Sequence record: MK295203
Length of the DNA stretch: 64,000 nt
Reading direction: 5' to 3' (one strand)
DNA from: Escherichia phage vB_EcoM_005
Numbering within the stretch: the stretch's first letter is position 1; each line of letters starts with the position of its first letter. The notes under the pieces were generated by a model, which saw only the letters and a program-made list of their open reading frames with translations, did no database searches and was not told the origin of the DNA. The translations under genes and the position numbers were made by a program. Below are positions 2,730-60,480 of this stretch, piece after piece.

Positions 2730-3422
<693 letters not shown>

Positions 3423-3427
3423 AAAGT

Positions 3428-3456
3428 TGTTTACAAGGTCTATAGGCATGATACTA
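3428..3456 (+). promoter_or_regulatory. T4-type early promoter (GTTTAC -35, 17-bp spacer, TACTAT -10) with inverted repeat ggtctatag/ctatagacc
   Basis: aaaagttGTTTACaaggtctataggcatgaTACTATagacctatcaa; A-rich upstream. Confidence 0.7.
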
Positions 3457-3494
3457 TAGACCTATCAAAACAAACTAACCAAACGGAAATCAAA

Positions 3495-3719
3495 ATGAAA
3501 ACTTATCAAGAATTTATTACCGAAGCTAAAAGACATGAAGATGAACTGCCAATTGTTACAAAAACCTTTGATGGCACACTGGCTGATTTTAAAAAAGTCC
3601 CTAGTGATAAGCTTGCTAAATTGACTGGCTCTATCAATGAAAAAGGTGGCAAGGTCACGTTTTCTGCTGGCGGCATAGCCAATCTTAAAAAACTTTTGAA
3701 AGCCGCTGGCGCTGAATAA
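3495..3719 (+). CDS. internal protein (IP)-like with capsid targeting sequence
   Basis: N-terminus MKTYQEFITEA matches the T4 IPI/IPII/IPIII capsid-targeting signal cleaved by the prohead protease; small basic protein. Confidence 0.7.
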   Translation: MKTYQEFITEAKRHEDELPIVTKTFDGTLADFKKVPSDKLAKLTGSINEKGGKVTFSAGGIANLKKLLKAAGAE

Positions 3720-3720
3720 A

Positions 3721-3993
3721 ATGAAATCATACCAAGAATTTATCACTGAATCTATTCTTAATGAAGAAGTAAAAATTAACAAATCTGTTAAGACCGTGAT
3801 TGATAATATAAATCATCTCTATAACATTGATTTGACTAATCACGTGACTTTAGGCAATAAGCGAAACTTTTTTGTTTTTGATACTTCAGAACTTGACCAG
3901 AATCAAATTAACAATATTGAACGTTTTGCTAATGAAAAAGGACTGCGTCACGAAACGGCTGGTTATAAAAAGTATGCAATTTATCTAAAATAA
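3721..3993 (+). CDS. internal protein (IP)-like with variant capsid targeting sequence
   Basis: N-terminus MKSYQEFITES; immediately follows previous IP-like gene. Confidence 0.6.
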   Translation: MKSYQEFITESILNEEVKINKSVKTVIDNINHLYNIDLTNHVTLGNKRNFFVFDTSELDQNQINNIERFANEKGLRHETAGYKKYAIYLK

Positions 3994-3995
3994 TT

Positions 3996-4025
3996 GTTTA
4001 CAACGGGCTCTAGTGGTGATACTAT
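3996..4025 (+). promoter_or_regulatory. T4-type early promoter
   Basis: GTTTACaacgggctctagtggtgaTACTATagccctatcaa; spacer and downstream repeats partly palindromic. Confidence 0.65.
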
Positions 4026-4061
4026 AGCCCTATCAAAACAAATGAGTGATTGGAGAATAAA

Positions 4062-4247
4062 ATGAAACGTTGCGAATTAATTAGAAATGTTACTGCACTG
4101 GCCGCCGTTACTGCTTTTGGCTTTAGTATGTTTGCAGGATTCATGCTCGATATGCTTTCAACTTCCGAGAATATAATCTCTTTAGTAGTGGCATTTTTAA
4201 TTGGTTCAATCTCTTTTGTTATGGATAAAATCTCTAAAGGTGAGTAA
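4062..4247 (+). CDS. small membrane protein, hypothetical
   Basis: SD ggaga then ATG; two hydrophobic segments. Confidence 0.5.
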   Translation: MKRCELIRNVTALAAVTAFGFSMFAGFMLDMLSTSENIISLVVAFLIGSISFVMDKISKGE

Positions 4248-4248
4248 A

Positions 4249-4629
4249 ATGTATAAAGTGTATGCGGACTACCAAGCTAATCCATCCGAAAAACCAGATT
4301 GTCAAATTGGATGGGCGCATGACACCCTGCTTGAAGCGGTAGATGAAGCTCAAAAATTAGGGTATAGTTATGTAGATATTGTTCAACCAAATGGAACAGT
4401 TATTACTCTTGAAGAATTCAAGAATATCAAAACAAACTTTTTGCTCTTTGCTGGTGATAACTATTATCCTCGTGGCGGTTATGCTGACTTAATTGCAAAA
4501 GCGGCGTCTGAAGATGAACTACGCGATATCATTAAAGAAAACGAGAATAAGCCTCAATATGGGTCTAATCGTTTTGACTGGTGGCAAATTGTTAATGCCA
4601 ATACCCACACAATTGTAGACGAGGGTTAA
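4249..4629 (+). CDS. hypothetical protein
   Basis: 126-aa ORF MYKVYADY..., SD gtgag upstream, tightly packed with neighbours. Confidence 0.5.
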   Translation: MYKVYADYQANPSEKPDCQIGWAHDTLLEAVDEAQKLGYSYVDIVQPNGTVITLEEFKNIKTNFLLFAGDNYYPRGGYADLIAKAASEDELRDIIKENENKPQYGSNRFDWWQIVNANTHTIVDEG

Positions 4630-4914
4630 ATGCTATACGTTAAGGTTACTAATCCAGAGAATGGCTATAACTCCGATCAGGTTGCAGCTGAGTTGTTGAT
4701 TCGCAATTATGGCAAAGATGCTGTTCTTGATGTTCAACAGGTTAATATAGGACGTAGTTCAAGCGATGTTAAGCTCAAAGTTAACAGCCATCGTTATAAT
4801 TCTGTTAACTTTACTTTTTATACCGCAACTGAAAACGGATTGGTCGAATACGACATCTTTAAAAATCCTTTGAAGATTGCTTCTATTAAACTTGATTACA
4901 TTAATATGCTTTAA
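4630..4914 (+). CDS. hypothetical protein
   Basis: 94-aa ORF, start overlaps previous stop (TAAATG). Confidence 0.5.
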   Translation: MLYVKVTNPENGYNSDQVAAELLIRNYGKDAVLDVQQVNIGRSSSDVKLKVNSHRYNSVNFTFYTATENGLVEYDIFKNPLKIASIKLDYINML

Positions 4915-5043
4915 GAATTATGTGATATTATTACTCTATCATTAATACCCTCTATTACCAAAGGTTCTTCCCTCAAAGAACCTTTCATAATAGACAAGGT
5001 CTATTAATCAAACTTACTTTACTTAATTTTATTTGAGGTGTTT

Positions 5044-5310
5044 ATGTTAGTATTAAAATTAGCTTTTTATGACCCAGAAACCAAGACAACAACTACCAAA
5101 CGTTGTTCTATTTCATATGACTGCCAATTTGGCGAAGTTGAGACTGACGGCGAGCCCTTTATGGCAATTGCCGATAGCACATTCGCTAAACCAAAAATAA
5201 TTCCACTAGTTAACGCTGCGGCTTATCTGGTTGCTCCTGAAGAAATGACTTATCATACAATTCAGCACATGGCTAAAGACGATAATGCTCCTGCTGGATT
5301 TGTAATTTAA
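5044..5310 (+). CDS. hypothetical protein
   Basis: ORF after gaggtg SD; ends 5 nt before first tRNA. Confidence 0.45.
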   Translation: MLVLKLAFYDPETKTTTTKRCSISYDCQFGEVETDGEPFMAIADSTFAKPKIIPLVNAAAYLVAPEEMTYHTIQHMAKDDNAPAGFVI

Positions 5311-5737: not shown

Positions 5738-5774
5738 GTATAAATAGATAAGTTAATTAACACAGGAAACAATA

Positions 5775-6248
5775 ATGAAAACTTACAATGAATTTTTGAA
5801 CGAAAGCGTTCTGACTGAAGCCTCCGCTTCAGATGTTCGCGCTGCAGCAACTGCTGCTATTAAAGCCGGTAAATATTCTTATAAAGATGCTTCTGATGAA
5901 TCTCGGTACAAGTTCTACGACGATATGAGAGCTGAAGGCTTTGTGGGTAACTATGTTACCACCGCCTGGAAAAGCATGGTTGCTTCTGGTGCAGCTTTCG
6001 AAAAAGCTTCTGGTAAACCCGCTCCTAAGGCCGACCCTAAAGCAGCACAAGAAAAAAATATTGCTAAAGGAATTATCTCTAAGTATGAAGCAATTCTTAA
6101 AGAGCTTTTAGTAATCAAAACAGAAGGCCAGAAACTGGCACGAGCACATAGCTTCAAAGATAATCCACATGCTCACGACTTAGAGTATGTTGAAGATATT
6201 CAGAAAATCATCAAAGACCGTATCTGGTCTGCTAAACAAATCAAATAA
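5775..6248 (+). CDS. internal protein (IP)-like with capsid targeting sequence
   Basis: N-terminus MKTYNEFLNESVLTEA; 157 aa, lysine/alanine rich. Confidence 0.6.
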   Translation: MKTYNEFLNESVLTEASASDVRAAATAAIKAGKYSYKDASDESRYKFYDDMRAEGFVGNYVTTAWKSMVASGAAFEKASGKPAPKADPKAAQEKNIAKGIISKYEAILKELLVIKTEGQKLARAHSFKDNPHAHDLEYVEDIQKIIKDRIWSAKQIK

Positions 6249-6250
6249 CG

Positions 6251-6273
6251 AAAGCCCCGTCTGGGGCTTTTTT
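6251..6273 (+). terminator. rho-independent terminator
   Basis: aaagccccgtctggggc + TTTTTT. Confidence 0.75.
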
Positions 6274-15512: not shown

Positions 15513-16109
15513 ATGAAAACGTATAAAGAATTTATCACCGAAGCTTCTGTAGGAAAGGTCCAAGGCATTAATAAAGATGAGTGGACTTACCGAGGAAACG
15601 GCGTTGACAAAATAGGAAACGGCTTTGACGCTAAAACAGCTCCTATTGAACGGTATTTAGCTACAAAGGCTTCCGATTTTAAAGCTTTCGCTTGGGAAGG
15701 ACTTCGCTGGCGTAACGACCTAAATATTGAAGCTGATGGGCTTAAATTTGGCCATATCCAAGATGTTGTTGCTAGTAACTTGGATGCAGCTTTTATTAAA
15801 GCCGACGGTGACCTTCGTCGCTGGAATTTAAAACTGTTCTCTAAACAGAAAGGTCCGGTATTTGTACCTAAAGCAGGTAAATGGACTATTGATAATAAAT
15901 TGGCTAAAGCGGTTAACTTCGCTGGTCTTGAATTTGCCAAGCACAAATCAGCATGGAAAGGTCTTGATACAATGGCTTTCCGTAAAGAATTTGCTGATGT
16001 TATGACTAAAGCCGGCTTTAAGGCAGAACTAGATACCTCTAAAGGTACGTTTAAAGACGCTAATATTCAGTACGCTTACGCCGTTGCTAATGCAGCCCGT
16101 GGTAATTAA
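15513..16109 (+). CDS. ipIII: internal protein III-like
   Basis: N-terminus MKTYKEFITEAS; 198 aa (T4 IPIII about 194 aa); located between e and denV as in T4. Confidence 0.7.
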   Translation: MKTYKEFITEASVGKVQGINKDEWTYRGNGVDKIGNGFDAKTAPIERYLATKASDFKAFAWEGLRWRNDLNIEADGLKFGHIQDVVASNLDAAFIKADGDLRRWNLKLFSKQKGPVFVPKAGKWTIDNKLAKAVNFAGLEFAKHKSAWKGLDTMAFRKEFADVMTKAGFKAELDTSKGTFKDANIQYAYAVANAARGN

Positions 16110-16137: not shown

Positions 16138-16440
16138 ATGAAAACCTATCAAGAATTTATCACTGAAGCCCGCGTAACCGCAGGTAAATTAGAAGCCGCT
16201 GTAAATAAAAAGGCCCATTCATTTCATGATTTGTCAGATAAAGACCGTAAGAAACTTGTAAGCCTTTATATTGACAAAGAGCGTATTCTCGCTCTCCCGG
16301 GCGCTAATGAAGGTAAACAGGCCAAGCCTTTGAATTCTGTCGAAAAGAAAATTGATAACTTTGCTTCTAAGTTTGGTATGTCTATGGATGACCTTCAGCA
16401 AGCGGCTACCGAAGCAGCTAAAGCAATTAAAGGTAAATAA
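16138..16440 (+). CDS. ipII: internal protein II-like
   Basis: N-terminus MKTYQEFITEARV; 100 aa; leader shared with ipIII (tttacctttaaaggaa). Confidence 0.7.
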   Translation: MKTYQEFITEARVTAGKLEAAVNKKAHSFHDLSDKDRKKLVSLYIDKERILALPGANEGKQAKPLNSVEKKIDNFASKFGMSMDDLQQAATEAAKAIKGK

Positions 16441-16959: not shown

Positions 16960-17259
16960 ATGAAAACTTATCAAGAATTTATTACAGAAGCCAAAGCTCC
17001 TAAAGCATTTCAAATTGGGGTTCAAGGCAATTTAGACCAAGAATATGTTGATGCTATTGTAGCAAGCCTCGGTAAACAGGGTGTACAAGTGGATTTGGTT
17101 GATTTTACCAAAGGTAATACTTTTAATATTGTTACGTCTAAAGGCTCTTTAGCTAAAGTTAAAAAGGCTTTTGGTGTAGCACAAGCCTACGAAATCGACC
17201 ACTCTGAATTAGAAAATAAAGGTCGCCAGAACACAATTAAAGGTTCTGGTTCTTTCTAA
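16960..17259 (+). CDS. internal protein (IP)-like with capsid targeting sequence
   Basis: N-terminus MKTYQEFITEAKAP; 99 aa; an extra IP relative to T4 at this locus. Confidence 0.6.
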   Translation: MKTYQEFITEAKAPKAFQIGVQGNLDQEYVDAIVASLGKQGVQVDLVDFTKGNTFNIVTSKGSLAKVKKAFGVAQAYEIDHSELENKGRQNTIKGSGSF

Positions 17260-47622: not shown

Positions 47623-47682
47623 GCAGTATCAATTTATTAAAAATAGTGTATAATGTACCTACATTCACTTGAGGAACAGATA

Positions 47683-49356
47683 ATGAAAAAGGTTGTTATT
47701 TTAGGCGCAGGTCTTGGCTCACGGTTGTATCCAATTACTAACGAAATCCCGAAGGTATTGGTTAACTACAAACAACATACAGTACTAAAACATTTATATG
47801 ATTTGTATAGTAACCAATCAGATGAAATTATTCTGGTTATTCACAGCAAATTTAACGACCTCGTTAAAGGCTATATTAAATCCATTAACATGATTAATAG
47901 TGATAAGCCTAAATTCACTATTCGTAACGTAGATGTGGCCAATGGTTCAGCTCATGCTATCGATTGCATTGCTGAAGATATCATTGGCCATAACGTCCTG
48001 TTTAACTGGTGTGACATCATTCCTGAGGGTCATAAAGTTGAGTGGGATAACGACTACTGTTATACCTACGGGACTGACTGTCGTTTTACATTTGAAGAAC
48101 CGTACTTGCGTGAAATTGGTACTGGCGGTGGCGTGGTTGGTTTGTATCAGGTGGCTAATTGGACAGGTTTCGACCGTTCTAATTATGGTGAAGACCTTGC
48201 CGATAACCTAGATTCAATGGTCTATTTGACTGAACGTAAGCTAGACTTTGTAGTTGATGTCGGTGACAAATTGAAACTGGCTAAGGCCCATGAAGAATCC
48301 GAAATTAACCGTGAATTTAATAAATTAGAGTTCACTGAGAATCTGGCTATTAAAGTACCAACTAACGAATTAGGTAAAGAAATCCAATCTAAAGAAATCA
48401 ATTGGTATAATTCTATTGATTCTGAATTTGTTCCGAGCATTGTAGACTTTGCTCCAGGCGAATTCATTAAAATGGAACGTATCTTTGGTCGCACCATGGC
48501 AGATGCCTACCGGTTTATGTCTAAAGAAACTAAAGTCCTCATGGTTTATAAGGTCATTAGTGCATTACGTTCATTCGGTGGAACTATCGATAACCCATCT
48601 GATGAGCAATGGTATTCCGATGTTAAGAAAGAAGTATTGGACAAGGTCCTGATTCGTAATGCTTCTATTGCCGGATTGATTGAAGGCTTTGCTCCACAGG
48701 GTATTACCCATGTCAATGACTTTAAGGTAGGCGACCCTGAAAAACTTCTTCGTCATGCACTAGAAATTCTGTCTGAACATAAAGAACCGTACCAACTTAT
48801 TCATGGCGACCCGCACTACAGTAATATTATGTTGTCTGACGAAGGTGATATTAAAATCATCGACCCACGTGGTTATTTTGGTAATAGTTCTAAAGGCCCT
48901 GCGATTTATGATGAAGCTAAGGTGCTTTATTCTATCGATGGTTATGACAAATTTAACTCTGACCCTCTATGGGGTGGCTTAACCCGTAACGGAACTCGTG
49001 TATTCGTTGATATTGAAAAGGTCATGCCTTTAGACGATATTCCGATGTGTACATTTAAGCACAAGCTCTGGATTGCTGTTATCTGGATGGCATTGGCAGG
49101 TTACTTTAAAAATAACCCTCTGAAAGCTCTGGGTGCTTATTACAATGGGCTATATCAACTGAGCGTGCTGCTGAAGCGGCATCCTCGTAAGCGTAAGCTT
49201 ATCACAGGTGAATTTGTCGATGAAGTTCGTGACCCTATTACGGCTCAAATTATCACTCGTTGTCCTGATAAGTGGGTTTTGCTTGACCAAGAAACTGGTG
49301 TAAAATATAAACCTACAGGTTCTACTGAACTCCACAAACAATGGAAGAAAATTTAA
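47683..49356 (+). CDS. bifunctional sugar/alcohol-1-phosphate nucleotidyltransferase + kinase (LicC/LicA- or MurU/AmgK-like fusion)
   Basis: N-terminal VILGAGLGSRLYPITNEIPKVLV (nucleotidyltransferase G-x-G-x-R-L loop); C-terminal HGDPHYSNIML and IKIIDPRGYFG (protein-kinase-like HGD...N and IDxE/D motifs of choline/aminoglycoside-type kinases). Confidence 0.7.
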   Translation: MKKVVILGAGLGSRLYPITNEIPKVLVNYKQHTVLKHLYDLYSNQSDEIILVIHSKFNDLVKGYIKSINMINSDKPKFTIRNVDVANGSAHAIDCIAEDIIGHNVLFNWCDIIPEGHKVEWDNDYCYTYGTDCRFTFEEPYLREIGTGGGVVGLYQVANWTGFDRSNYGEDLADNLDSMVYLTERKLDFVVDVGDKLKLAKAHEESEINREFNKLEFTENLAIKVPTNELGKEIQSKEINWYNSIDSEFVPSIVDFAPGEFIKMERIFGRTMADAYRFMSKETKVLMVYKVISALRSFGGTIDNPSDEQWYSDVKKEVLDKVLIRNASIAGLIEGFAPQGITHVNDFKVGDPEKLLRHALEILSEHKEPYQLIHGDPHYSNIMLSDEGDIKIIDPRGYFGNSSKGPAIYDEAKVLYSIDGYDKFNSDPLWGGLTRNGTRVFVDIEKVMPLDDIPMCTFKHKLWIAVIWMALAGYFKNNPLKALGAYYNGLYQLSVLLKRHPRKRKLITGEFVDEVRDPITAQIITRCPDKWVLLDQETGVKYKPTGSTELHKQWKKI

Positions 49357-49739: not shown

Positions 49740-50272
49740 AACCAAAAATCATTGTTATCGACGGCCCGGATAATTCCGGGAAGTCCACTTTAATTGAATC
49801 ACTTTTATCTGATAAGAAATATCGTCTTATTGATTTTCCTAAAAAGATTAACGGTAAATGCATTTCATTAGGGACCGATAATGACAAGGCTTTAGTCGAG
49901 ACGTTGTATAAGTTTTTAGACCCTAATTTTGTCTACATCTTAGACCGTGGGTATCCTAGTAATATTGTTTACTCGGGATTCCTTCGTGGTGAAATGGACC
50001 CTTATGTAGAACTGGAAGATTGGAAAGGGTTTAAATCTGAATTCAATATTATTGAGGTTATTTTAACCCGTAACCCATTAGATGAAGACTTCGAAGATGA
50101 CCTTATTAAATTAACCAAAGATGAGTTCAACCTAACTATCCGGCAGTATGAAACATGTTTTGAAAACGTGTTTAAAATCTTAAATCACGACGGCCATAAT
50201 AATTTGCTTAATGTTGATATGGTAGAATTAAAACGTCTGAATGAATATATTGAAAATAAGGTGAATAAATGA
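49736..50272 (+). CDS. P-loop kinase (thymidylate/deoxynucleoside kinase-like)
   Basis: Walker A IVIDGPDNSGKST, downstream DRGYPS; 178 aa. Confidence 0.55.
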   Translation: MKPKIIVIDGPDNSGKSTLIESLLSDKKYRLIDFPKKINGKCISLGTDNDKALVETLYKFLDPNFVYILDRGYPSNIVYSGFLRGEMDPYVELEDWKGFKSEFNIIEVILTRNPLDEDFEDDLIKLTKDEFNLTIRQYETCFENVFKILNHDGHNNLLNVDMVELKRLNEYIENKVNK

Positions 50273-50967
50273 AACACATTACCGCTGTTAGTTTTGAAAA
50301 CGCGTTTAAGCAAATGAACGAAGAAATCCTGGAAGCTCCACAGTTTGCAGTTGATTCTCGTATCGGCCGTTGTTATGAAATTGGTTCTGCTTCGGTAGAA
50401 GTACTGGATGCAAGCACCTATAAATTCACCGACCCTCGTATTAATCGTATCAACTATGATTATGCCGAATCTTTCTGGAAATTTATGATTTCTGGTGGTA
50501 CTGATGCCGCCGAAGCATTTAAGGAATACCCTAATGTTGCTAAGTTCATTGATAAGCCGAAAAGTGACGTATTGCCTGCAAACTTCAACACTTTCTATGG
50601 ACCTCGAATTGTGGCCCAACTCCCAGCCCTACTTAAAGAGCTTAAAGAAAAGCCTAACTCGAGACGAGTTGTGTTCCAAATTCTCCAAGAACAAGACCAA
50701 GCTCTCCTTGATTCTGACGAATCCTTAGAATATCCGTGTACCGATTCGGTAACATATTATATTCGTGATGGACGTCTGTATGCACACACTCATATGCGTT
50801 CACAGAACTGTGCTATCGTTATGCAGCTGGATTTCTATCTGCAGGGTAAACTGATGGCCTTTATTGCTGAACAGTGTGGTGTTGGTCTGGGTACGTATTC
50901 CCATACTATGGTTAGTGCACACGTGTTTGAACGTGATTTTGACTACGTTCGAGGATTCCTGAAATGA
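50269..50967 (+). CDS. 42: dCMP hydroxymethylase (gene 42; thymidylate-synthase fold)
   Basis: active-site region EYPCTDSVTYYIRDGRLYAHTHMRSQN aligns with recalled T4 gp42 MCTNTVQYLIRDKKINAVVNMRSND; Cys followed by Thr rather than TS-type PCH. Confidence 0.75.
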   Translation: MKHITAVSFENAFKQMNEEILEAPQFAVDSRIGRCYEIGSASVEVLDASTYKFTDPRINRINYDYAESFWKFMISGGTDAAEAFKEYPNVAKFIDKPKSDVLPANFNTFYGPRIVAQLPALLKELKEKPNSRRVVFQILQEQDQALLDSDESLEYPCTDSVTYYIRDGRLYAHTHMRSQNCAIVMQLDFYLQGKLMAFIAEQCGVGLGTYSHTMVSAHVFERDFDYVRGFLK

Positions 50968-55858: not shown

Positions 55859-55888
55859 GTTTACAACGGTCTATGGTAGTGATACTAT
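55859..55888 (+). promoter_or_regulatory. T4-type early promoter
   Basis: GTTTACaacggtctatggtagtgaTACTATagacctatcaa. Confidence 0.7.
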
Positions 55889-55916
55889 AGACCTATCAAC
55901 TAACGAGGAGTTAAAA

Positions 55917-58817: not shown

Positions 58818-59471
58818 TTGATGCTGGCGAAAGGGTTCTATTCTGGGACAAGAGGAAAATTAAGAGGTTCTAAGCGGTCTTTATCATATTATACGGAAGA
58901 ACACCATGTTATACCTAGATGTATGAATGGTTCTGATGATAAAAACAATTTAGTTGCTTTATTGCCAAGAGAACACTTTGTAGCTCATAGGCTTTTAACA
59001 AAAATATATCCCGAAGTAAAAGGTCTACATTATGCTGTTAATTTAATGAGATATAATAAAGGAGTTAAATTAACTAGTAGAACTATAGCCACGTTAAGAG
59101 AAAATAACGCTAAAGCATTTTCAGGAAAAAATAACCCGATGTTTGGTAAACCTTCCTGGATTAGAGGGATGAAAACTCCTGAAGAAACTAAAGCCAAAAT
59201 GCGCCTGGCTCATAAAGATAAAATTATATCTGATGAAGCCAAGGCCAATATGAGTAAAGCTAGAAAAGGAAGATTTAGTGGTAAAGATTCCCCTAGATAT
59301 GGTTTGCCAAATCCTAGGCGTGGAGAAATATGGAATAGTTACGATATGCTTTATGAATTATGGGTTTACAATAATAAACCTAAACGCACCAAATTTAATA
59401 AAATAGCTGTTGATAATGGATATCCTGATATTTGTTATCGACGAATGATAGAAAACTTTAATAGGAAATAA
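58818..59471 (+). CDS. HNH homing endonuclease (Mob-like); 5' end uncertain
   Basis: HNH motif EEHHVIPRCMNGSDDKNNLVALLPREHFVAH; NUMOD-like repeats; track ORF start overlaps primase-derived sequence. Confidence 0.65.
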   Translation: MMLAKGFYSGTRGKLRGSKRSLSYYTEEHHVIPRCMNGSDDKNNLVALLPREHFVAHRLLTKIYPEVKGLHYAVNLMRYNKGVKLTSRTIATLRENNAKAFSGKNNPMFGKPSWIRGMKTPEETKAKMRLAHKDKIISDEAKANMSKARKGRFSGKDSPRYGLPNPRRGEIWNSYDMLYELWVYNNKPKRTKFNKIAVDNGYPDICYRRMIENFNRK

Positions 59472-59475
59472 TATA

Positions 59476-59613
59476 ATGGCATTTTTTAACGAATGTAGTG
59501 GTTTGATTTCTGGTGTTGATAAAGCTGAGGAAGCTTATTTTAATGCTCTGATTCACGAAGATAATTTATTTATTCGCTTTAATCTAACAGTTTATAATTA
59601 TCTAACTTATTAA
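59476..59613 (+). pseudogene. dCTPase (gene 56) N-terminal fragment
   Basis: MAFFNECSGLISGVDKAEEAYFNALIHED then unrelated tail; 54 nt identical to the start of the next copy. Confidence 0.6.
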
Positions 59614-59636
59614 TGAATTGAAAAAGGAAAAATATA

Positions 59637-60056
59637 ATGGCACACTTTAACGAATGCGCAAACCTGATTGCTGGTGTTGATAAAGCTGAGGAAGCTTATT
59701 TTAATGCTCTGATTCACGAAGATAAGGACCCTCTGCAGGTTATGTTGCGTGAACAGAAAGATTGTATTGACGATGAATTCCGTGAACTTCTGACTTCCCT
59801 CGGTGAAATGTCTAAAGGTGAGAAAGATGCATCTGCTGTATGGAAAAAATGGAAAGCCCGTTACCCGGAAGCACAAGCCAAACCTATTTCAGAAATGTCT
59901 CCTGAAGACCAGCTTGAAATTAAATTTGAACTCATTGATATTATGCACTTCGTATTCAATATGGCTATTGGCTTGAATATGTCGGCTGAAGAAATGTTTA
60001 AACTTTATTACCTGAAAAATAAACACAACTTTGAACGCCAGGACAATGGATATTAA
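59637..60056 (+). CDS. 56: dCTP pyrophosphatase gp56 copy A (MazG-like), apparently lacking a middle segment
   Basis: MAHFNECA..I.GVDKA...DPLQVML then REQKDCIDDEFRELLTSLGEMS.GEK.ASAVWKKWKARY...EMSPEDQLEIKFEL.D..HFV.NM..GL.M.AEE.FKLYYLKNK.NF.RQD.GY, matching recalled T4 gp56 ends. Confidence 0.75.
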   Translation: MAHFNECANLIAGVDKAEEAYFNALIHEDKDPLQVMLREQKDCIDDEFRELLTSLGEMSKGEKDASAVWKKWKARYPEAQAKPISEMSPEDQLEIKFELIDIMHFVFNMAIGLNMSAEEMFKLYYLKNKHNFERQDNGY

Positions 60057-60106
60057 TTTCAAATCCGTTCTTAAAGAAAAGTTCCCGCAATGGGAACTTT
60101 TAGAAG
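60008..60106 (+). repeat. 99-bp direct repeat, copy 1 (3' end of dCTPase copy A plus junction)
   Basis: identical to 60430-60528. Confidence 0.9.
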
Positions 60107-60480
60107 ATAAACCTGAATATAACCGTCATCCTGATGACTTGGCTACTGCAGGTGAAGTTGTTGATTGGTTGCGCAATCAGAAAGATTATATTGATGATGA
60201 ATTCCGCGAACTTCTGACTTCTCTTGGTGGCATGAGCAATGGCGAAAAAGATGCGAGCGCTGTATGGAAGCCTTGGAAAGCTCAACATGCTGAACGTCGT
60301 GAAACCCTGATTAACGATTTGTCTCCTGAAGACCAGCTCGAAATTAAATTCGAAATGATTGATATTCTGCACTTTGTTCTGAATATGTTCCAAGGTCTTG
60401 GACTGACTGCTGAAGAAATCTTTAAACTGTATTACCTGAAAAATAAACACAACTTTGAACGCCAGGACAATGGATATTAA
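60046..60480 (+). CDS. dCTP pyrophosphatase gp56 copy B (diverged paralog/allele), lacking the N-terminal segment
   Basis: YNRHPDDLATAGEVVDWLRNQKDYIDDEFRELLTSLG... ; ~75 percent nt identity to copy A body, identical 99-bp 3' end. Confidence 0.7.
   Translation: MDINFKSVLKEKFPQWELLEDKPEYNRHPDDLATAGEVVDWLRNQKDYIDDEFRELLTSLGGMSNGEKDASAVWKPWKAQHAERRETLINDLSPEDQLEIKFEMIDILHFVLNMFQGLGLTAEEIFKLYYLKNKHNFERQDNGY

Follow-up and report, generated by a model that had tools for sequence, protein, structure and literature searches.

A described counterpart of the locus considered here is ipI of phage T4, whose product IPI* is injected and inhibits CT596 GmrSD, a type IV restriction enzyme. Cleavage by the prohead protease is said to follow an (L/I)xE rule established for T4 by Mullaney and Black in 1996. 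T4 internal proteins are targeted to the core of the prohead by a leader, cleaved by gp21 after a Glu and injected together with the DNA (PMC3012670, PMC12373910); IPI* itself is both packaged and injected (PMC3012670). Variable cargo behind a constant leader was what Repoila described for internal proteins in 1994, to go by the accounts of that study in later papers (PMC3012670, PMC4122927, PMC12373910). Ip1, Ip2 and Ip3, the only characterised members, each inhibit one distinct GmrSD-type type IV enzyme (PMC12373910). The one published screen of ip4-10 against a panel of GmrSD variants, in which few of the numerous GmrSD clusters proved active and could be assayed, yielded no reproducible inhibition, and an apparent ip8 signal with CLS_018/019 could not be reproduced (PMC12373910). 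Finally, the promoter-early stem-loop (PeSL) cassette has been proposed as an agent of modular shuffling in T4-like phages, by authors who tied these cassettes explicitly to the 1994 observations on the IP locus (PMC4122927).

We analysed a stretch of 64,000 nucleotides from Escherichia phage vB_EcoM_005 (record MK295203; hereafter, the window), which comes from a JS98-like T4 relative of the genus Dhakavirus and has Escherichia phage UGJNEcP3 as its best DNA match (93% identity over the region). On the left, the local gene order consists of gene 1, encoding the dNMP kinase (1968-2729, + strand), 57A (2722-2967, + strand; Pfam GP57, 8e-28) and 57B (2967-3422, + strand), a member of the Acb1 anti-CBASS phosphodiesterase family (Pfam PF23474, E 6.8e-59, full length) that forms the left border of the internal-protein slot. 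Directly downstream of 57B, where the preliminary description had located a pair of internal-protein-like genes, are two ORFs of 74 aa (3495-3719, + strand, beginning MKTYQEFITEAKRHEDE) and 90 aa (3721-3993, + strand, beginning MKSYQEFITESILNEE). The conserved right neighbour of the slot, annotated as trna.4 in JS98, RB32 and T4, is represented by a gene for a trna.4-like small membrane protein (4062-4247, + strand; phrog_1692, 3e-33), with which a run of trna.4-, trna.3- and trna.2-like genes begins, in that order and on the + strand. The interval between 57B and trna.4 is one of two ip loci, the other being next to gene e. As a side observation, gp57B is labelled 57B or 'RNA ligase' in JS98, WG01 and T4 despite the full-length Pfam match to Acb1, and the internal-protein slot adjoins, in Acb1, a known anti-defence gene that targets CBASS.

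Judged by sequence, the two ORFs are orthologues of the named families Ip8 and Ip9. The first is 85% identical to RB15 Ip8 (CAA84465) over its full 74 aa (E 1.5e-40) and falls into phrog_8765, 'internal virion protein' (8e-27); its family is present in 106 phage records, and its relatives form 20 protein clusters at 75-93% identity. The second is 77-78% identical to the Ip9 of RB15 and RB32 over its full 90 aa (E about 1e-46) and falls into phrog_7673, 'internal head protein' (2.5e-55), with a family present in 198 phage records. Close relatives annotate both proteins in the same way. Values of dN/dS against orthologues (0.19-0.37 for Ip8, 0.02-0.16 for Ip9) indicate purifying selection and hence that both ORFs are real genes; chance ORFs can be rejected on these grounds, on the number of records that hold each family and on the motif statistics given below. 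The preliminary description, which missed the names Ip8 and Ip9, had thus correctly recognised a known system: the locus, the leader, both families and the idea of shuffling were already published in 1994 and present in database annotations, and its notion of changing cargo attached to an unchanging leader agrees with how the locus is described in print (PMC3012670, PMC4122927, PMC12373910).

Compared with known members of the two families, the pair differs in several points. Like RB15 Ip8, our Ip8 has 74 aa, the same leader and a place in the 57B-trna.4 slot; however, RB15 ip8 stands at the end of a row of four ip genes, behind a promoter/stem-loop cassette of its own, whereas here ip8 comes first, in a co-transcription unit with ip9. 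The Ip9 proteins of RB15, K3 and RB32 (CAA84463; ABI94964) likewise share with ours the length of 90 aa, the leader type and the slot, but carry Thr3 where ours has Ser3, and our ip9, unlike theirs, lacks a promoter cassette of its own, its ATG lying 1 nt past the ip8 stop.

Both ORFs were said to open with a T4-type capsid-targeting leader, and so they do: MKTYQEFITE|A in Ip8 and MKSYQEFITE|S in Ip9 conform to the pattern MKTYQEFIxE, as do T4 IPII and IPIII (MKTYQEFIAE). In a six-frame translation of the window the motif M[KR][TS]Y.[ED]F[ILV].[ED] occurs six times, always at the start of a + strand ORF (3495, 3721, 5775, 15513, 16138 and 16960). A looser motif, MK.Y.EF, returns the same six sites, against an expectation of 0.005 matches in shuffled versions of the window. 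Six cargos, all different, keep the same leader in this genome, and M1, K2, F7, I8 and E10 are invariant in all collected Ip8 and Ip9 sequences.

The proposed prohead-protease site after Glu is also present, in that I-T-E at residues 8-10 fits the (L/I)xE rule, the cleavage itself being a prediction. In Ip8, where the leader comprises residues 1-10 (MKTYQEFITE), cleavage at ITE|A would release a mature Ip8* of 64 aa with a pI of 9.6 and the N-terminus AKRHEDELPIVTK. The leader of Ip9 (MKSYQEFITE|SILNE|E) holds two such sites, ITE|S and LNE|E, so that the predicted Ip9* would have 80 or 75 aa, a pI of 8.0-9.0 and SILNEEVK or EVKINK at its N-terminus. AlphaFold confidence is low in both models over the leader and just after it (approximately residues 10-15, the predicted cleavage site). 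T4 IPI resembles the two proteins in its slot, its upstream promoter/stem-loop cassette, a leader ending in I-T-E|A and a similar size, but its leader has 19 residues rather than 10 (or 15).

Past the leader, similarity ends. BLASTP aligns Ip8 with Ip9 over residues 1-16 only and hhalign over some 35 N-terminal columns led by the common leader, which bears out the view that the mature proteins are unrelated. Models built from family alignments give the Ip8 cargo a beta-alpha-beta-beta-alpha topology (mean pLDDT 78.5) and the Ip9 cargo an alpha-beta-beta-alpha-beta-beta topology (mean pLDDT 81.9); with different predicted topologies and an alignment confined to the N-terminus, we reject the idea that the two are diverged paralogues. 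By BLASTP and hhalign neither cargo resembles T4 IPI, IPII, IPIII, Ip5 or Ip7 outside the leader, and a PDB fold search with models and profiles of both proteins returned no significant match to any solved structure. Neither by sequence nor by fold, then, do they group with IPI*: there is no BLASTP similarity past the leader and no significant structural match. NCBIfam holds no match for either protein and Pfam only a sub-threshold match of the leader to DUF7412.

A relationship between Ip9 and Ip7, for which a partial tblastn match (H110) and a chimeric protein (P0040) might speak, was considered and rejected, as the similarity found by hhalign is that of the leader. P0040 deserves mention in its own right: in this metagenomic protein of 77 aa the N-terminal half matches phrog_2667 (Ip7-type internal head protein) and the C-terminal 35 residues match Ip9, which suggests a recombinant of an Ip7-type N-terminal half with an Ip9 C-terminal half and therefore recombination between cargos, beyond the leaders.

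How variable is the slot? T4 holds ipI alone between 57B and trna.4, that is, in the place where the preliminary description had put it, while the window and UGJNEcP3 hold Ip8-Ip9. IME341 has a 69-aa ORF followed by Ip8 and Ip9, and WG01 the same three followed by Ip7; MX01 has Ip9-Ip7, RB15 has Ip5-Ip9-Ip7-Ip8 and RB32 has Ip5-Ip9-Ip7, a set which, according to the RB32 record, 'replaces ipI' and is 'flanked by 43 bp direct repeat'. In JS98 we find two leader-bearing ORFs, of 69 aa (2205-2414 of NC_010105, GTG start, MKSYKEFLTEA...) and 97 aa (2494-2787, MKTYQEFIKES...), in an interval where the RefSeq record annotates nothing; neither cargo has a match among the ip proteins that we compared.

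Within the window, the leader-coding DNA forms a 50-nt direct repeat with 76% identity between ip8 and ip9, and one relative provides an example of exchange within it. When MX01 975-1050 is aligned with window 3485-3560 and 3711-3786, the 5' end of MX01 ip9 appears as a hybrid, Ip8-type in its upstream sequence and codons 1-4 and Ip9-type from about codon 8. Such a hybrid is what one would expect if the two leaders had crossed over within the repeat and the Ip8 cargo had been lost in the process, and it points to an event of this kind.

Ahead of ip8 lies a 49-nt PeSL-type cassette (3428-3476, + strand) that consists of GTTTACA, a 10-bp stem-loop overlapping GATACTAT and then TATCAAAACAAA. A promoter scan picks out a promoter-like TTTACA-N16-TACTAT with TG, and the hairpin (-18.1 kcal/mol) has a z of -6.3 relative to shuffled controls. 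Cassettes of this type in T4-like phages reportedly go back to Arbiol in 2010. A second copy (3996-4044, + strand), 84% identical to the first, was recovered as a direct repeat, by pattern match and by promoter scan, with a hairpin z of -4.6 against shuffled controls. The first cassette is the predicted promoter that drives the Ip8-Ip9 pair, and the second is both the predicted right border of the Ip8-Ip9 cassette and the predicted promoter of trna.4. Since no PeSL cassette intervenes between ip8 and ip9 in the window, and ip9 starts 1 nt after the ip8 stop, the pair would be bicistronic, a single unit.

The element at 3428-3476 also aligns upstream of T4 ipI, RB15 ip5, ip9, ip8 and trna.4, MX01 ip9 and the JS98 97-aa ORF; across this alignment the stem arms vary between copies and the hairpin is kept. 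The likeness to PeSL as defined by Comeau 2014 (PMC4122927) lies in a TTTACW-N17-TAYWAT promoter and a stem-loop flanking variable genes, the difference in that one exchange junction (MX01 versus the window) falls inside the leader-coding repeat and thus outside PeSL. A third exact match to the pattern GTTTACA...GATACTATAG is found at 55859-55890, far from the ip locus, with a hairpin z of -3.4.

The visible promoter of the pair is early-type only: no TATAAATA late-promoter box precedes ip8, the nearest being at 5739, and the sequence aligned ahead of T4 ipI likewise shows none. We considered whether a missing late promoter argues against packaging and rejected the argument, because T4 ipI has the same cassette and IPI* is packaged (PMC3012670).

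The late-promoter box at 5739-5746 belongs to another leader-bearing gene, which it directly precedes (5775-6248, + strand, 157 aa, MKTYNEFLNE|SVLTE|A; phrog_2280, unknown function) and which is followed by a terminator-like hairpin at 6251-6270. Its family is present in 510 phage records and, among the matches listed, is annotated as hypothetical or 'Phage protein' or carries no feature; this candidate internal protein is probably a packaged protein that has gone unrecognised. The remaining three leaders mark the second internal-protein locus of the genome (15513-17259, + strand), where the same leader is found on IPIII (15513-16109, + strand; 86% identity to T4 IPIII), IPII (16138-16440, + strand; 93% identity to T4 IPII) and an Ip7-like protein (16960-17259, + strand; 48% identity to RB15 Ip7).

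What kind of DNA might such proteins accompany? T4-type glucosyltransferases, whether alpha or beta, are absent from the window; a nucleotidyltransferase/kinase fusion (47653-49356) and a divergent thymidylate-synthase-family gene (50269-50967) are both present, downstream of the DNA polymerase, and Dhakaviruses have been placed among phages with a pathway for arabinosylated 5-hydroxycytosine (2026, PMC13326640). The DNA of this phage is probably hypermodified in a manner different from that of T4, with arabinosylated 5-hydroxycytosine. We note in passing that gene 56 (dCTPase) is recovered by tblastn in three pieces (59476-59565, 59637-60053 and 60100-60477) adjoining an ORF (58818-59471) that carries a NUMOD3 homing-endonuclease motif, a configuration (58818-60477) that may reflect duplication or an endonuclease-associated rearrangement.

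The Ip9 cargo, of about 72 aa and with the motif ...KRNFFxFD...N..N(I/V)(E/Q)RFAN.KGLR.E..G.KK.AIY, is also found outside the internal-protein slot. Searched exhaustively with HMMER on its own (residues 16-90), it retrieves only 10 cluster representatives, which take three forms: fusions to variant leaders (MKFNEFLTEA, MKSFKEYLTES), leaderless proteins of 66-77 aa and a module in a large protein. Leaderless copies are found in the Kagunavirus JSSK01 (stretch 2507-2725), beside a divergent HTH-gene region, and in the Seuratvirus KS_S4 (stretch 2492-2716), among small hypothetical genes; both have in-frame stops upstream, and their start coincides with that of the predicted mature Ip9. In the Ackermannviridae pertopsoe, SilasIsHot and ChubbyThor, the module makes up the C-terminal ~70-80 residues of a protein of 684-755 aa (phrog_3867; Kuttervirus pertopsoe stretch 2991-5258, ChubbyThor gp130 stretch 250-2301). 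Residues 1-654 of this large protein are conserved across the family and its C-terminus varies; in LIMEstone1 the annotation of its homologue reads 'confirmed structural protein', a virion protein with MS confirmation. This distribution suggests one domain that reaches the host by different delivery routes, and we put forward, tentatively and as something short of an even bet, that the Ip9 cargo is a portable effector module to which unrelated phages give three such routes, namely leader fusion, leaderless siphovirus gene and Ackermannviridae C-terminal module.

On the strength of these comparisons we consider it probable that Ip8 and Ip9 are T4-type internal proteins, encoded by a bicistronic cassette in a hyperplastic 57B-trna.4 slot, packaged, injected and, by analogy, directed against host defence. 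An early-type promoter/stem-loop cassette stands upstream, and each of the two proteins opens with the 10-residue leader MK(T/S)YQEFITE. If T4 is a guide to what follows, the leader would take them into the scaffolding core of the assembling prohead, gp21 would cut after Glu10 (I-T-E|A/S), and in Ip9 possibly also after L-N-E15, and the small basic Ip8* (64 aa) and Ip9* (75-80 aa) would remain alongside the DNA in the head and be injected together with it. By analogy, each might then neutralise a specific host factor by binding it before phage gene expression, the most likely target being a nuclease that attacks hypermodified phage DNA, as in the case of Ip1-3 and GmrSD. The diversity of the slot would derive from the swapping of cassettes, both at the promoter/stem-loop repeats on either side and inside the shared leader-coding sequence, and not from rapid point mutation.

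Packaging, cleavage and injection of Ip8 and Ip9 are steps that we infer by homology. Searches of the literature turned up neither virion proteomics nor data on N-terminal processing for the two proteins. The supplements to a virion mass spectrometry study of the Jiaodavirus ValerieMcCarty03 contain no predicted Ip8 peptides, and the three regions of its genome that we examined contain no Ip8; what the study did detect were proteins that are encoded next to the lysozyme gene and carry the annotation 'internal virion protein'.

Analogy with the characterised members, Ip1-3, makes an anti-restriction role plausible. In favour of an anti-defence function we count the position of the slot next to the anti-CBASS gene Acb1 and the probable hypermodification of the DNA. 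Against it counts the low omega of Ip9 (about 0.03), since purifying selection of this strength is not to be expected in a fast arms race by point mutation. The target, moreover, need not be a GmrSD of the type met by T4, since this phage probably carries arabinosylated 5-hydroxycytosine rather than glucosyl-hmC. Both Ip8 and Ip9 are also found in glucosyl-hmC Tequatroviruses, and Ip8 in Klebsiella T4-like phages, so that neither appears tied to one DNA chemistry.

There are a number of scenarios that depart from this reading. The one that survives best, possible though we would not put our money on it, keeps injection and anti-defence and has the proteins act on something other than GmrSD, a sensor or effector that is disarmed before phage transcription. 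This would accord with the negative results for ip4-10 on the GmrSD panel, with the neighbouring Acb1 acting on CBASS and with the spread of the Ip9 cargo over phages of differing DNA chemistries (Kagunavirus, Seuratvirus, Ackermannviridae, and T4-likes with glucosyl-hmC or arabinosylated DNA). However, the panel covered few active and testable representatives of the many GmrSD clusters, and all three characterised members of the system act on GmrSD enzymes.

A second scenario, which we regard as unlikely, has the proteins packaged for a physical purpose, as small basic proteins that offset charge or help to arrange the DNA, be it inside the head or in the course of ejection. The predicted mature forms of both are indeed basic, both proteins are under purifying selection and no defence target has been found for ip4-10. 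Yet if the two had such a duty, we would hardly expect the content of the slot to be swapped and lost as freely as it is, with MX01 lacking Ip8 and JS98 and T4 lacking both. Further, the leader route into the head is closed to the leaderless siphovirus homologues of the Ip9 cargo, which, presumably lying among early genes, fit an intracellular better than a structural role, and all three internal proteins of known function are specific nuclease inhibitors. Finally, that the leader is vestigial and Ip8 and Ip9 are ordinary early cytoplasmic proteins that never enter the head would suit an early-type promoter and a cargo that can exist without packaging, as the leaderless homologues show, but is highly improbable given five invariant leader residues across the collected sequences, the retention of the same leader on six cargos and the packaging of T4 IPI from the same promoter arrangement.

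The spread of the Ip9 cargo across phage families offers a route to its target, as a leaderless homologue could be expressed in trans and screened without packaging. Were the large Ackermannviridae protein ejected, it would resemble a polymorphic toxin in being a carrier, here of an anti-defence domain; the shared module would, if this is true, point to a conserved host target in Escherichia, Salmonella, Shigella and Klebsiella. Plausibly, it is in part the content of the slot that decides which wild strains are open to infection by a therapeutic T4-like phage.
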